Positions 38,943 to 48,701 of a stretch of DNA of 64,000 bases are shown in pieces. This stretch comes from Klebsiella phage K64-1. The number at the start of each line of letters is the position of its first letter. Within the stretch, counting starts at the first letter, position 1. The position numbers and the translations under genes were made by a program. The notes below the pieces were generated by a model, which was not told the DNA's origin, ran no database searches, and saw only the letters and a list, made by a program, of their open reading frames with translations. The stretch is from sequence record AB897757.1, one strand, 5' to 3'.

Positions 38943-39459
38943 AATTATTTTATGTACAGATAAAAATTACGGTATAGGATATAAAAATACAATTCCGTGG
39001 CATAGCAGTGAAGATTTTAAACACTTCAAAGAAGAAACTTTGAATAAAACTGTTGTGATGGGATATAATACATGGAAATCCCTACCAAATAAACCACTTT
39101 CAAAAAGACTTAATATTGTGCTTGTTAATCGTGCATATGAAGATCGTGATATGTATGATCAAACCAACGTCTTATTTCTGGATGAAGATAATTTAGAAAG
39201 TATTATTCGTAATAACCCTGATTGTGTTATTATTGGCGGTGCATCAATTTATAAAATGAGTTTGCCTCATGTAGATGAAATCGTACATAGTATAATTCCC
39301 AAAGAATTTGTATGTGATTGCTTTTTTGACTTCACTATTGATAAGCGTGTGATTATTGAACGTGAAAGTTGTAAAACACTTGATGATGGTATTATGGTGG
39401 ATTATTATAAATGCAAACCAAATCCAGATTATGATGATTACGTGGATTCATATCAATGA
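38935..39459 (+). CDS. frd: dihydrofolate reductase
   Basis: IILCTDKNYGIGYKNTIPWH...VVMGYNTWKSLP...IIGGASIY. The ATG at 38935 is preferred over the track's upstream extension. Confidence 0.8.
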   Translation: MAKIILCTDKNYGIGYKNTIPWHSSEDFKHFKEETLNKTVVMGYNTWKSLPNKPLSKRLNIVLVNRAYEDRDMYDQTNVLFLDEDNLESIIRNNPDCVIIGGASIYKMSLPHVDEIVHSIIPKEFVCDCFFDFTIDKRVIIERESCKTLDDGIMVDYYKCKPNPDYDDYVDSYQ

Positions 39460-40040
39460 AGATAAAGGATATGGAAGTTCATTTATGTGAGCGTGGTGAA
39501 ATTTCTTCATTCATTGAAGAACATCATTATTCTAAAAATATTAATGGTTGTATAACTGATTATTGTTTCAAATTAACATATAATAATGAAATAATTGGTG
39601 CTATGTTTTATGGAAAAATGGCTATGGCTAACCAATACAAAAGATTTGTTGATAGAGAAGAAGATTGTATTGAGTTGCGTAGATTATGCTGTATTGATGA
39701 TACACCAAAAAACACTGAAAGTTTTTTTATTGGTAAAACACTAAAATGGCTTAAAAAGAACACACAAATAAAGGTGGTTGTTAGTTATGCAGATCAAGAA
39801 TATGGTCATAGTGGTATAATTTATAAAGCATCTAATTTTGAATATAATGGATTTAAAAAAGGTGCTAAAGTTATAATCCACAATGGCAAACAATATCATG
39901 ATAAAGCTATTAGAACTAAGTATAAAGGGAAGTTAAAACCATTTGCACAAAGATTAAAAGATGCATTAGACAGTGGTGATGCTTATTATAAACAAACTGC
40001 TGGAAAACATACTTACACTTACAAGTTAAGGAAAACTTAG
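39456..40040 (+). CDS. free-standing GNAT-like domain protein, homologous to the C-terminal domain of ORFs 27097 and 46992
   Basis: EISSFIEEHHYSKNINGC...LTYNNEIIGAMFYGK...LKWLKKNT...VVSYADQEYGHSGIIYKASNFEYNG aligns with YARKC..E..FI..YH.QG...GLYY.NEL...TFGK...SKLLKYF...SYAD..WS.G.LY.K.GF.Y.G in the large endonuclease-like ORFs. Confidence 0.5.
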   Translation: MKIKDMEVHLCERGEISSFIEEHHYSKNINGCITDYCFKLTYNNEIIGAMFYGKMAMANQYKRFVDREEDCIELRRLCCIDDTPKNTESFFIGKTLKWLKKNTQIKVVVSYADQEYGHSGIIYKASNFEYNGFKKGAKVIIHNGKQYHDKAIRTKYKGKLKPFAQRLKDALDSGDAYYKQTAGKHTYTYKLRKT

Positions 40041-42232: not shown

Positions 42233-42264
42233 TGCTTTACTAATGTTTTAAAATAACATATAAT
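42232..42264 (+). promoter_or_regulatory. candidate promoter: TGCTTTA (MotA-box-like) and -10 TATAAT
   Basis: AATGCTTTAC at 42231-42240 and CATATAAT at 42257-42264. The 19-bp spacing between box and -10 is longer than the T4 middle-promoter rule. Confidence 0.3.
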
Positions 42265-42300
42265 ACAATCTTACCAATAAAAAACGGAGTAGTATAATAC

Positions 42301-42810
42301 ATGAAAGAAATTATTGCCAATGACAAAATTATTGCTAAAACTGTTCGTTTAGTAATGGACGGTTCTAGTGAAGTAATGGCAATTGCTAAAGCACGTCAGG
42401 AAGCCGATAATTTGGGTCTTGATATTGTGGTTGTAAATAATGGGGATGTACCTGTAGTTAAAATTGTAGACCTTAACAAATACAAATACGAACTCAAACA
42501 ATCAGAAAAAGCATCTCTGAAAAAACAGCGTCAGAATGTTATCAGTACTAAGGAGATTCAATTCACTTTCGGTACTCAGGATAATGATTTGATCGTTAAG
42601 GCTAAATCTGCTACTAAGTTTTTATCAGAAGGTAAAAATGTATTAATTGTTATGAAAACCGTTGGTCGTGGAAATACACCTCAATTAGTTAAACAAAATA
42701 TTGATGCGATGAATGCTTTTGTGAAACGTCTTGGTGAAGTAGACTTTATCCAAAAAGTCGAATATCACGGCAAAAAAGTAACATGCACTGTCAAAAGTAC
42801 TGTAAAATAA
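42301..42810 (+). CDS. infC: translation initiation factor IF3 homologue
   Basis: Collinear with bacterial IF3 along its whole length. Phage KIIAKTVRLVMDGS..LGLDIVVV..PVVKIVDLNKYKYELKQSEKA.KKQRQ...KEIQFTFGTQDNDLIVKAKSATKFLSEGKNVLIVMKTVGRGNT matches E. coli [93 protein letters not shown]. Confidence 0.8.
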   Translation: MKEIIANDKIIAKTVRLVMDGSSEVMAIAKARQEADNLGLDIVVVNNGDVPVVKIVDLNKYKYELKQSEKASLKKQRQNVISTKEIQFTFGTQDNDLIVKAKSATKFLSEGKNVLIVMKTVGRGNTPQLVKQNIDAMNAFVKRLGEVDFIQKVEYHGKKVTCTVKSTVK

Positions 42811-43365
<555 letters not shown>

Positions 43366-43369
43366 TAAT

Positions 43370-43990
<621 letters not shown>

Positions 43991-44002: not shown

Positions 44003-44920
44003 ATGCCTAGTAAGAGTCAATCACAAGCACGATTATTTGCAGCAATGGCACATGATCCAGAAATTGCAAAACAACATGGTGTTTCTATGAGTACAGCAAC
44101 AGAATGGAATAAATCAGATGCAGAAATGGGTAATCTAAATAAAAGTTCTAAACTACCAAAGCATGTAAAAAAAGAAAAGACTGAAGAAAGTTCTACGCGT
44201 GACATTCTTGATTATCTCAATAATCTTGAATTACAGGACGAAATAGAACAAGAAGAGAAAGCGGTACAGTACAGTACAGAACGCTCTAGAATGCACCAAA
44301 AAGGCTGTCAGTGCGACGATTGTTCCAATAATGAGCACCACTATTACCCTGATGTACAACACGCCCATGATTGCTCCTGTGATGATTGTGCTTCACATAT
44401 TGAGTTACAGGAAATGCCGCAGAGATTTGACGCGTTTGCTGGACAAGACCGAGATGAATTCGTTGATAAAACCGCTGAAATGACAGGCCGACACAACATG
44501 GTTCCATTTGCTGAACATGCTGATTATACTGTGTATAAAAATAAAAACGGTTCAGGGTTTATTGCTTATGGTAAAGATGGTAAACAGCTTGCAGTACTTA
44601 GTGGGTATGTGAGTGATAATGCAGTACATGGAGTACCAAATGTATTTGTTGAAGAAGCAATTGCATCCAAGACTGGTACTAAGGGTGTAATTTATACTAT
44701 TTTCACTGATCTGTTAAATGCAGGATATAAAATTTTAAGTGATGAATTACATTCAGATGATGCAATTGCTTTTTGGTCTAAATTGATTTCATCTCATCAA
44801 GTATATGTGGTTGGTGACGGCGAAGTACTGGCTCGTGCTAATACTCAAAAATTACACAAGTATTGGAGTTCAGATGAAACAAGTCCAAGTGCAGAATTAC
44901 GTTTATTACTAGTAAAATAA
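44003..44920 (+). CDS. hypothetical protein with Cys/His-rich segment
   Basis: 305 aa. Contains HQKGCQCDDCSNNEHHYYPDVQHAHDCSCDDCASH. Confidence 0.5.
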   Translation: MPSKSQSQARLFAAMAHDPEIAKQHGVSMSTATEWNKSDAEMGNLNKSSKLPKHVKKEKTEESSTRDILDYLNNLELQDEIEQEEKAVQYSTERSRMHQKGCQCDDCSNNEHHYYPDVQHAHDCSCDDCASHIELQEMPQRFDAFAGQDRDEFVDKTAEMTGRHNMVPFAEHADYTVYKNKNGSGFIAYGKDGKQLAVLSGYVSDNAVHGVPNVFVEEAIASKTGTKGVIYTIFTDLLNAGYKILSDELHSDDAIAFWSKLISSHQVYVVGDGEVLARANTQKLHKYWSSDETSPSAELRLLLVK

Positions 44921-46991: not shown

Positions 46992-48701
46992 ATGAAACAT
47001 GATGAAGTAGTTAGTATAATTAAAAAATTTGCCAATGAAGTCAAGTCCAATGGGGAATCAGTACTAAAGCAAATTAAAAAGATGGATAGATATGAAGAAG
47101 TTATTTCATATCTAAAAAGCTATTATGGTGACTATGATATTAAAGTTCTAATTGGTTCAGTACTAAATGATTTAGATACCATTCCCATTGCTGCTTGTGG
47201 GAATGTATGTAGATTTGATGGATTAAAATTGAGGTACGTATGTACCTCATATAAAATGAACAAAGAAGAAACATGTCCTGAGTGTCATATTAAATTAAAA
47301 GAAATAATGAACAACAACAGAATGCAATCTGTGGAAATGAAGTACGGTACTCCATATATATCTAAAGTTCCAGAATTTAGAGAGAAAGCAAAAAATACAA
47401 TGTTTAATGAGTATGGTGTATATAATATTTCTAATTTGGATTCTGTGAAAAAGAAAAAAAGTGATAATTATCACAATAAAAGTTTAGAAGAAAAAGAACG
47501 TATTAAAGAAAAAAATAAGAAAAAAGTAATACAGACATATGGTGTTGATAACGTATCTAAATCTGAAATTGTAAAACAAAAGAAACTTGGTAATAAAAAT
47601 CCATTCAATAATAGTACTTTTAAAATTAAAAATATCATTAATACAACCAAACGAAGATATAATAGCATAACAGACTATTTAAAAACCAATGATAAACCAT
47701 ATACACTAACTTACATGCCATTTGCATATAAAGATGACCATGTATTTCAATGCAAGTGTGGTGAAATTATAAGTTGTAAAATACAATCGTTTGATACAAT
47801 ACGTTGTTATAAATGTTTCCCATTGGAAGTAAGTTCTGGTGAACTTTGGTTGAGACAAGAAATTGAAAATATTATAAGTAATACATCAACAAGTACTGAA
47901 ATGTTATTAAATCAAAGGTATGATTTTATTGATAACAGAGATATTGATATATACTTACCTGAATTGAAAATAGGTTTTGAATTCAATGGTTCGTACTGGC
48001 ATAATGATGAACACAAAGATAAGTACTATCATCAGAAGAAATCGATTTCTGCAAAAAACAATGGTATCAATTTAATACATATCCATGAATCTGATTATAA
48101 TAAAATAAAAGATAAAATTGTAATGAGATTAAAACATGTATTAAACAAAAATGATAAAACAATTTATGCAAGAAAATGTATTGTAAAAGAAGTATCATTT
48201 AAAGAAAGTGAAGTATTTTTGGATGAATATCATTTTCAACAATCATGTGTATCAGGTATAAGAATTGGATTATATTATGATAATGAATTAGTAGCATTGG
48301 CTACGTATGGAAAATCCAGATATGACAAAAAATATGAATATGAATTATTGAGATTCTGTACAAAGTATTCGGTACCGGGTGGATTTAGTAAAATAATGAA
48401 ATACTTTGAGCAAACATACAACCCTAAATCATTGATGACATATGCCGATCTGGACTGGAGTAATGGTAATGTTTATGAAAAAAATGGGTTTGAGTTTGTG
48501 AAATACACCGAACCAAGTTACTTTTACGTGGATAAATATCAAAATAAAATTTCAAGATATGATTGTCGTAAAACTGAATTATTAAAACTATATGATTGGG
48601 CTACCAATGATATGACGGAAACTGAAATCTGTAAAAAATTAAATTACAATAAAATATATTCATCTGGAAATATAGTTTATCGTAAAATATATAACAAATA
48701 A
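46992..48701 (+). CDS. modular endonuclease-like protein (paralogue of 27097..28830) inserted between topoisomerase II subunit genes
   Basis: Zn finger CGNVC...CTSYKMNKEETCPECH. NUMOD-like repeats (MKYGTPYISKVPEFREKAKNTMFNEYGVYN, KVIQTYGVDNVSKSEIVKQKKLG). Ribbon QCKCGEIISCKIQSFDTIRCYKC. Vsr-like IDIYLPELKIGFEFNGSYWHN...NNGINLIHIHESDY. GNAT-like C-domain VPGGFSKIMKYF...MTYADLDWSNGNVYEKNGFEF. Confidence 0.6.
   Translation: MKHDEVVSIIKKFANEVKSNGESVLKQIKKMDRYEEVISYLKSYYGDYDIKVLIGSVLNDLDTIPIAACGNVCRFDGLKLRYVCTSYKMNKEETCPECHIKLKEIMNNNRMQSVEMKYGTPYISKVPEFREKAKNTMFNEYGVYNISNLDSVKKKKSDNYHNKSLEEKERIKEKNKKKVIQTYGVDNVSKSEIVKQKKLGNKNPFNNSTFKIKNIINTTKRRYNSITDYLKTNDKPYTLTYMPFAYKDDHVFQCKCGEIISCKIQSFDTIRCYKCFPLEVSSGELWLRQEIENIISNTSTSTEMLLNQRYDFIDNRDIDIYLPELKIGFEFNGSYWHNDEHKDKYYHQKKSISAKNNGINLIHIHESDYNKIKDKIVMRLKHVLNKNDKTIYARKCIVKEVSFKESEVFLDEYHFQQSCVSGIRIGLYYDNELVALATYGKSRYDKKYEYELLRFCTKYSVPGGFSKIMKYFEQTYNPKSLMTYADLDWSNGNVYEKNGFEFVKYTEPSYFYVDKYQNKISRYDCRKTELLKLYDWATNDMTETEICKKLNYNKIYSSGNIVYRKIYNK

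Follow-up and report, generated by a model that had tools for sequence, protein, structure and literature searches.

An IF3 homologue of Klebsiella phage K64-1 and its counterparts in the RaK2-like jumbo phages

Introduction

The closest described systems are the IF3 genes of the RaK2-like jumbo phages. The CBB paper noted IF-3 homologues in GAP32, 121Q, PBECO4 and Rak2 (PMC5259590) and Iyer et al. counted both IF3 and a KTSC protein as translation-related in the group 2.2 jumbo phages (PMC7824862). The authors of the Sharanji paper held that no function can be stated for IF3 in phages (PMC11895373), and our literature searches for an experimental test of any phage IF3 found none. Components of the same class (IF1, IF3, S1 and S21) occur in huge phages, where they were proposed to intercept host translation; Al-Shayeb et al. 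2020 reported IF1 and IF3 there, and S21 was described as important for initiation (PMC7162821). The huge phages are mostly uncultivated and belong to other clades, whereas the RaK2-like lineage is cultivated, infects enterobacteria and is genetically manipulable.

Two cellular systems offer a further comparison. Bacterial InfC (E. coli P0A707) has in common with the phage protein studied here the two-domain architecture, the basic helical linker, the charge pattern and the best-conserved residues, K110 and Y75 among them. The phage protein differs in its identity of only 29%, in the missing N-terminal tail, in the replacement of C-domain arginines, in the loss of E134 and in being borne by a virus. 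The genes differ as well: E. coli infC starts with AUU and lies in the thrS-infC-rpmI-rplT operon, whereas the phage gene starts with ATG and has ClpS and KTSC genes as neighbours and not those of L35 and L20. Mitochondrial IF3 (human MTIF3, yeast Aim23) has the fold of both domains in common with the phage protein (Foldseek E 6e-9 to 3e-3), but the identity is only 11-17% and its N- and C-terminal extensions are missing from phage IF3, so that the likeness is one of fold only.

We analysed a window of 64,000 nucleotides from Klebsiella phage K64-1 (AB897757.1). It contains the same gene in the same order as the RaK2-like phages, with no difference of substance. To what was already described we add a residue-level comparison with bacterial IF3, evidence that the gene is inherited vertically and kept by purifying selection, its start codon other than AUU and its linkage with ClpS and KTSC genes and, in one relative, with S21.

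Results

The open reading frame and its predicted fold

The preliminary description had named a 169-aa ORF as a phage-encoded IF3 homologue, and we found this ORF exactly at 42301..42810 (+), running from an ATG to a TAA. All motifs that had been claimed for it are readable in the translation. In the N-terminal half these are V15-R16-L17, L38-G-L-D-I-V43, N46-N47-G48 and P51-V-V-K-I-V-D57, and in the C-terminal half K84-E-I-Q-F88, D94-N-D96, F107-L-S-E-G-K112 and G122-R123. We then compared the translation with profile libraries, the check that the preliminary description had proposed, and IF3_N, IF3_C and the infC equivalog all scored above their curated cut-offs. The Pfam family IF3_N (PF05198) matched residues 7-71 (42319..42513, +) over profile positions 2-69 of 70, with 53.4 bits compared to a cut-off of 26.9 (E 3e-14); the folded alpha/beta part of this N-terminal domain comprises approximately residues 1-57. 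IF3_C (PF00707) matched residues 81-164 (42541..42792, +) over profile positions 1-83 of 86, with 41.3 bits compared to a cut-off of 34.8 (E 1.5e-10), and this C-terminal domain is predicted to bind the 30S subunit. The NCBIfam infC equivalog TIGR00168 matched over its full length with 90.6 bits (cut-off 60, E 9e-26) and PHROG 9787, labelled 'translation initiation factor', over positions 1-167 of 168 (E 2e-66). A search of the PDB matched IF3 chains from 30S initiation complexes (E 5.5e-16).

The AlphaFold2 model, which was built from 36 homologues and has a mean pLDDT of 85.7, places two globular alpha/beta domains on either side of a long helix. In the N-domain we can see strands at residues 14-19, 22-27, 41-46 and 52-56 and a helix at 28-37. 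The basic linker helix spans residues 58-80 (42472..42540, +), and the C-domain elements follow in the order beta-alpha-beta-alpha-beta-beta. The top structural matches in Foldseek were 30S-bound IF3. The N-domain aligned with the N-domain of H. pylori IF3 (6o6d) with a TM of 0.81 and an rmsd of 1.9, and the C-domain aligned with 1tig with a TM of 0.83 and an rmsd of 2.3. The charge layout is also common to the phage and the E. coli proteins, with an acidic N-domain, a basic linker (net charge +5 for the phage segment 58-82 and +6 for E. coli) and a basic C-domain. The predicted fold is thus the IF3 architecture of N-domain, basic linker helix and C-domain. Profiles and predicted fold together uphold the proposal that the phage encodes an IF3 homologue which has both domains, and we regard it as near-certain that the ORF at 42301..42810 is a genuine phage IF3 orthologue.

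Residues compared with bacterial IF3

Phage IF3 and E. coli IF3 are 29% identical. The two had been described as collinear with no insertions, which is nearly right, although indels of one or two residues exist: an N-domain loop has a gap of 2 residues, two further gaps are of one residue each, and the phage linker is longer by two residues. At its N-terminus the phage protein is short of about the first 9 residues of the E. coli tail. The phage clade keeps the residues that bacterial IF3 proteins conserve best; numbered as in E. coli, these are N16, I19, V24, R25, A42, A46, D52 and L53 in the N-terminal half, P63, V64, K/R66, D69, K72, Y75, K82 and K86-Q88 in the middle of the protein and K94-E95, D106, K110, F117, G121, G132-R133 and G167 in the C-terminal half. 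The phage residues Y63, D96, K100 and R123 align with E. coli Y75, D106, K110 and R133, respectively. Across the 21 phage sequences aligned K100 is invariant and Y63 is always Y or F. The counterparts of both residues have been studied in E. coli: K110L is an IF3 mutant that does not bind the 30S subunit, and Y75N (infC362) makes start-codon selection less strict and the extended conformation less favoured (PMC7145577).

We favour, with somewhat better than even confidence, the reading that the phage protein is a working IF3 which acts on the host 30S subunit, is not subject to the autoregulation of the host gene and thereby adds to host IF3, or takes over from it, in infection. Homology, domain architecture, key residues, purifying selection, synteny and the start codon are the observations on which this model is based.

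The C-domain shows the most noticeable differences. Eight arginines of the E. coli C-domain (R99, R112, R116, R129, R131, R133, R147 and R168) were reportedly linked by Petrelli et al. 2003 to interactions with the 30S subunit and the mRNA, and only R133 reached the conservation threshold across the non-phage sequences. In phage IF3 R133 is retained and R112, R116, R129 and R168 are lysine, while the remaining positions carry the substitutions R99T, R131V and R147A, to which Y107L is added. Across the phage clade R99 is replaced by T, S or A and R131 and R147 are variable, with none of the three basic, and Y107 is replaced by L. The widely conserved residues G35 and E134 are lost in the clade, and Q67 and Q93 are phage-specific. 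As C-domain arginines are replaced, Y107 has become L and E134 and G35 are lost, the phage factor may bind the 30S subunit with another affinity or specificity than the bacterial one. The preliminary description had suggested that phage IF3 could retune the choice of start codon or leader, an idea for which the sequence offers little support. Such an IF3 of altered specificity would take the place of host IF3 on 30S subunits, shifting the accepted start sites or leaders toward phage mRNAs. The C-domain substitutions make such a change possible, and the clade-specific residues and the missing N-terminal tail count in its favour, but the fidelity residue Y75 and the binding residue K110 are both conserved. 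We consider altered specificity unlikely, and a less likely reading than a working IF3; further evidence on it comes from the start sites and the neighbouring genes below.

The conserved residues also bear on a reading in which the selected activity is subunit anti-association, or the release of assembly and hibernation factors (RbfA, for instance), so that the protein would draw 30S subunits out of idle 70S ribosomes in slow-growing hosts and not proofread starts. The anti-association activity of IF3 is based on the C-domain and should not need the N-domain. The N-domain of the phage proteins is as well conserved as the C-domain, which argues against this reading, as does the fact that no gene related to HPF or RbfA adjoins IF3 in the window. 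It is, on the other hand, consistent with the release of RbfA from mature 30S subunits by IF3, for which full-length IF3 and Y75 are needed (PMC7145577), as both are conserved in phage IF3, and with the presence of a gene of the hibernation-factor family (sigma-54 modulation protein/S30EA) in the related phage Sharanji (PMC11895373). Overall we judge it to be quite improbable.

Distribution, annotation and evolution

IF3 homologues were detected in 74 of 50,697 phage records (tblastn, E<=1e-5), as intact ORFs of 166-173 aa. Phage-encoded IF3 had been called uncommon, and as a count this is fair, but the gene occurs in every RaK2-like jumbo phage relative that was examined. The hosts of the RaK2-like carriers belong to the genera Klebsiella, Escherichia, Salmonella, Erwinia, Yersinia, Serratia, Cronobacter, Pectobacterium and Xanthomonas, and also to Vibrio; among the carriers are the Escherichia phages 121Q and PBECO4, Cronobacter phage GAP32 and Pectobacterium phage CBB. 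Remoter matches with about 35-36% identity were found in Agrobacterium phage Atu_ph07 and Sinorhizobium phage Phosso. The tblastn matches end at residue 157 of 169 even in near-identical phages, for which we suspect the low-complexity filter. Direct comparison showed the C-terminus of IF3 to be intact and conserved.

The 2-kb region round the IF3 gene is 99.7-99.9% identical to that of the Klebsiella jumbo phages RaK2, Muenster and OU509535 (genus Alcyoneusvirus). The sole amino-acid difference from RaK2 IF3 is H156 here compared to Q156 there (codon 156, 42766-42768), and Q156 is also present in KP13-7, RCIP0023 and the phiKp_21 cluster representative. For RaK2-like phages of other genera the IF3 identity is 47-72%. 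The preliminary description implied that the gene was new. However, the RaK2 RefSeq record already names it (F403_gp382/ORF153, 'translation initiation factor ... similar to InfC'), its Muenster counterpart CPT_Muenster_394 is labelled 'translation initiation factor IF-3' and phage IF3 has been treated in the literature. Further annotated IF3 genes are 121Q gp47, that of PBECO4, GAP32_313, CBB_318 and Sharanji WNN14575. The label 'hypothetical protein' persists in the GenBank record of RaK2 (JQ513383), in RCIP0023 and in phiKp_21. The finding of a phage IF3 is therefore real and already known.

Within the phage clade we calculated pairwise dN/dS values of 0.13-0.25 for pairs ranging from 98% to 49% identity. 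In a crude neighbour-joining tree, computed without bootstrap, 64 phage-type sequences formed one clade which contained 0 of the 25 sequences from bacterial genomes. A scan of 185,579 species-representative genomes returned only ordinary bacterial IF3 from scattered phyla, with at most 41% identity over partial segments. The exhaustive HMMER search collected 4,545 relatives at E<=0.001 and only 4 at E<=1e-30. Recent capture from a host was considered and ruled out, given the 29% identity to E. coli IF3, the low and partial bacterial matches and the separate phage clade. The low bacterial identity, the separate neighbour-joining clade and the dN/dS values point to a gene that is old, vertically inherited and under purifying selection. 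On these comparisons of sequence, the ORF encodes a complete IF3 and is one of the core genes of the RaK2-like jumbo phages, inherited vertically and maintained by selection.

The same data bear on the idea that the ORF is a non-functional relic of a captured host gene. A relic would sit badly with the low dN/dS, with intact ORFs of the same length across phage genera and with an identity of only 29% to enterobacterial IF3. The conservation data effectively refute this idea and we give it virtually no credence.

Start codon, promoter and leader

The start codon of the phage IF3 gene is ATG and that of E. coli infC is ATT. Because of its AUU start the host gene is sensitive to the level of IF3 and hence autoregulated, and phage IF3 should escape this feedback since it starts with ATG. 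We looked for an AUU start among all phage IF3 genes compared and found none. In four distant relatives the start is TTG, preceded by (A)GGAG at 6-7 nt (position 293 of L032 and position 4001 of L033, L034 and L035, the last being Vibrio phage 2.275.O), and Phosso IF3 starts with GTG (position 2980 of L006). In the window the Shine-Dalgarno core GGAG, as read from the sequence, is located at 42286..42289 (+), 11 nt before the ATG. Spacings of 11-13 nt were also observed in 121Q, GAP32 and XaC1. Expression of IF3 may be low as the 11 nt between GGAG and AUG exceed the usual spacing, and the long-spaced ATG and the TTG or GTG arrangements might alike result in modest IF3 expression.

The 68-nt gap upstream of IF3 contains a candidate sigma-70-like promoter at 42236..42264 (+), TTTACT-17 nt-TATAAT, which agrees with the consensus at 10 of 12 positions. 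Phage 121Q has a perfect TTGACA-17-TATAAT at a similar distance from IF3, GAP32 is also promoter-like in this place, and in the distant relatives L032, L034 and L035 the promoter-like element is TGTTATAAT. In the relatives with such an element the -10 ends 26-44 nt before the IF3 start. Scanning 7 kb we counted 49 promoter-type matches compared to 37 +/- 6 expected. Consensus matches are frequent in AT-rich DNA and thus the promoter assignment is only suggestive.

A structured leader or regulatory RNA was considered as well and rejected: the 5' region folds no better than shuffled sequences (z = +1.25), and Rfam returned no match over the whole window at the gathering threshold.

These data return us to the possibility of an IF3 with altered specificity. 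The preliminary description stated that several genes of the window have very short or unusual leaders, and we could not confirm this. In a crude call of 77 genes, made with a caller that mildly favours ATG, the start was ATG for 75, and 70 showed a Shine-Dalgarno core, counted as 3-6 nt located 5-13 nt upstream. The genes of the window are thus conventional and offer no obvious unusual class of start site to favour. We also found no leader structure or motif peculiar to phage genes. Both results argue against altered specificity.

Gene neighbourhood

The IF3 gene lies within a conserved order of genes: Dda-type helicase, a protein of ~190 aa, a protein of ~62 aa, IF3, ClpS, KTSC, X and topoisomerase II, where X is either a virion protein or a Sod_Fe_C protein. 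RaK2, Muenster, 121Q, GAP32, XaC1, three metagenomic contigs and Vibrio phage 2.275.O all share this order, which persists down to an IF3 identity of 32%. The gene for the ClpS-domain protein (42826..43365, +) begins 15 nt downstream of IF3 and is probably co-transcribed with it. Its product has 179 aa, of which only residues 74-143 form the ClpS domain, and the match to PF02617 is barely over the Pfam cut-off (24.4 bits compared to 23). The gene for the KTSC-domain protein (43430..43990, +; PF13619, 46.1 bits) is the third in the conserved block, and KTSC follows ClpS in the relatives examined, including 121Q, L032, L033, L034 and L035. In Vibrio phage 2.275.O (MG592671.1, 349 kb) a gene for ribosomal protein S21 (PF01165; L035 4533-4778) lies directly between IF3 and ClpS. 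Two proteins with a link to translation initiation are thus neighbours there, which connects the huge-phage observations with the phage IF3 described here. Phosso shows a second, differently arranged adjacency of IF3 and Clp, with the gene for a Clp protease ATP-binding subunit directly upstream of IF3 (L006 1655-3501).

Judged by adjacency only, these gene arrangements would suit a small module that acts post-transcriptionally or on the ribosome. Other translation genes were also sought in the window and the only candidates were the KTSC and ClpS neighbours; a search of the window for tRNA genes found none. Altered specificity of IF3 gains some support from its linkage to further genes that may act on the ribosome, namely KTSC in every relative and S21 in the Vibrio phage.

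A Mom-family DNA-modification protein (PF25680, 127.6 bits) is encoded at 39456-40040, between the DHFR and Dda helicase genes, where 121Q, GAP32 and XaC1 carry a gene for RNase H. No Pfam family matched the window ORF after KTSC (44003-44920, 305 aa); the corresponding RaK2 gene carries the annotation of a virion structural protein. In the distant relatives L032 (1693-2244), L034 (5610-6173) and L035 (6350-6919) the gene after KTSC has a Sod_Fe_C domain, the C-terminal domain of iron/manganese superoxide dismutase. An ORF of 569 aa at 46992-48701 lies between the genes for the large and medium subunits of topoisomerase II; the Muenster annotation calls it a Hef-like homing endonuclease, and it may be a mobile insertion that splits the topoisomerase gene pair.

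Two further readings of the locus involve the ClpS-like neighbour. In the first, phage IF3 would substitute for host IF3 that has been inactivated by an abortive-infection toxin or by phage shut-off, or would competitively inhibit host initiation, and the adjoining ClpS-like adaptor would possibly route host proteins to ClpAP. The evidence for it is adjacency: a ClpS-domain gene follows IF3 in 8/8 RaK2-supergroup relatives examined, in one of them (L035) past the inserted S21 gene, and the Clp ATPase gene adjoins IF3 in the distant phage Phosso. Adjacency is also its sole evidence, no system is known to us that would mark IF3 for degradation, and the conserved binding and fidelity residues argue against a dead decoy. 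We regard this reading as very unlikely. In the second, IF3, ClpS and KTSC (plus S21 in the Vibrio relative) would form a module for taking over the ribosome. Phage IF3 with its altered C-domain surface would replace host IF3, the ClpS-like adaptor would remove host factors and initiation would be biased to AU-rich phage mRNAs. We would give this module only a slim chance.

Discussion

The reading we prefer, that of a working IF3 on the host 30S subunit, can be put as a sequence of steps. After infection a sigma-70-type promoter of its own would drive IF3, and the transcript would also take in the ClpS-domain gene and perhaps that for KTSC. Translation would begin at a normal AUG, so that the AUU feedback which limits expression of host infC would not apply. 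The basic C-domain would then bind the platform of the host 30S subunit, and the linker and the N-domain would monitor the codon-anticodon pair in the P site. In this way phage IF3 may keep 30S subunits free and competent for initiation, and host IF3 would be supplemented or replaced while a phage with 32% GC infects a host with 57% GC (host value taken from the RaK2 paper). We infer the timing of expression, the binding to the 30S subunit and the benefit to the phage.

Phage initiation factors are widely cited as an example of large phages 'intercepting' host translation. In E. coli, Klebsiella and Salmonella, which the lineage described here infects, genetic work on infC, start-codon reporters and cryo-EM of 30S subunits are routine. 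As these tools are routine in its hosts, the lineage is a practical system in which to study the role of a viral IF3.
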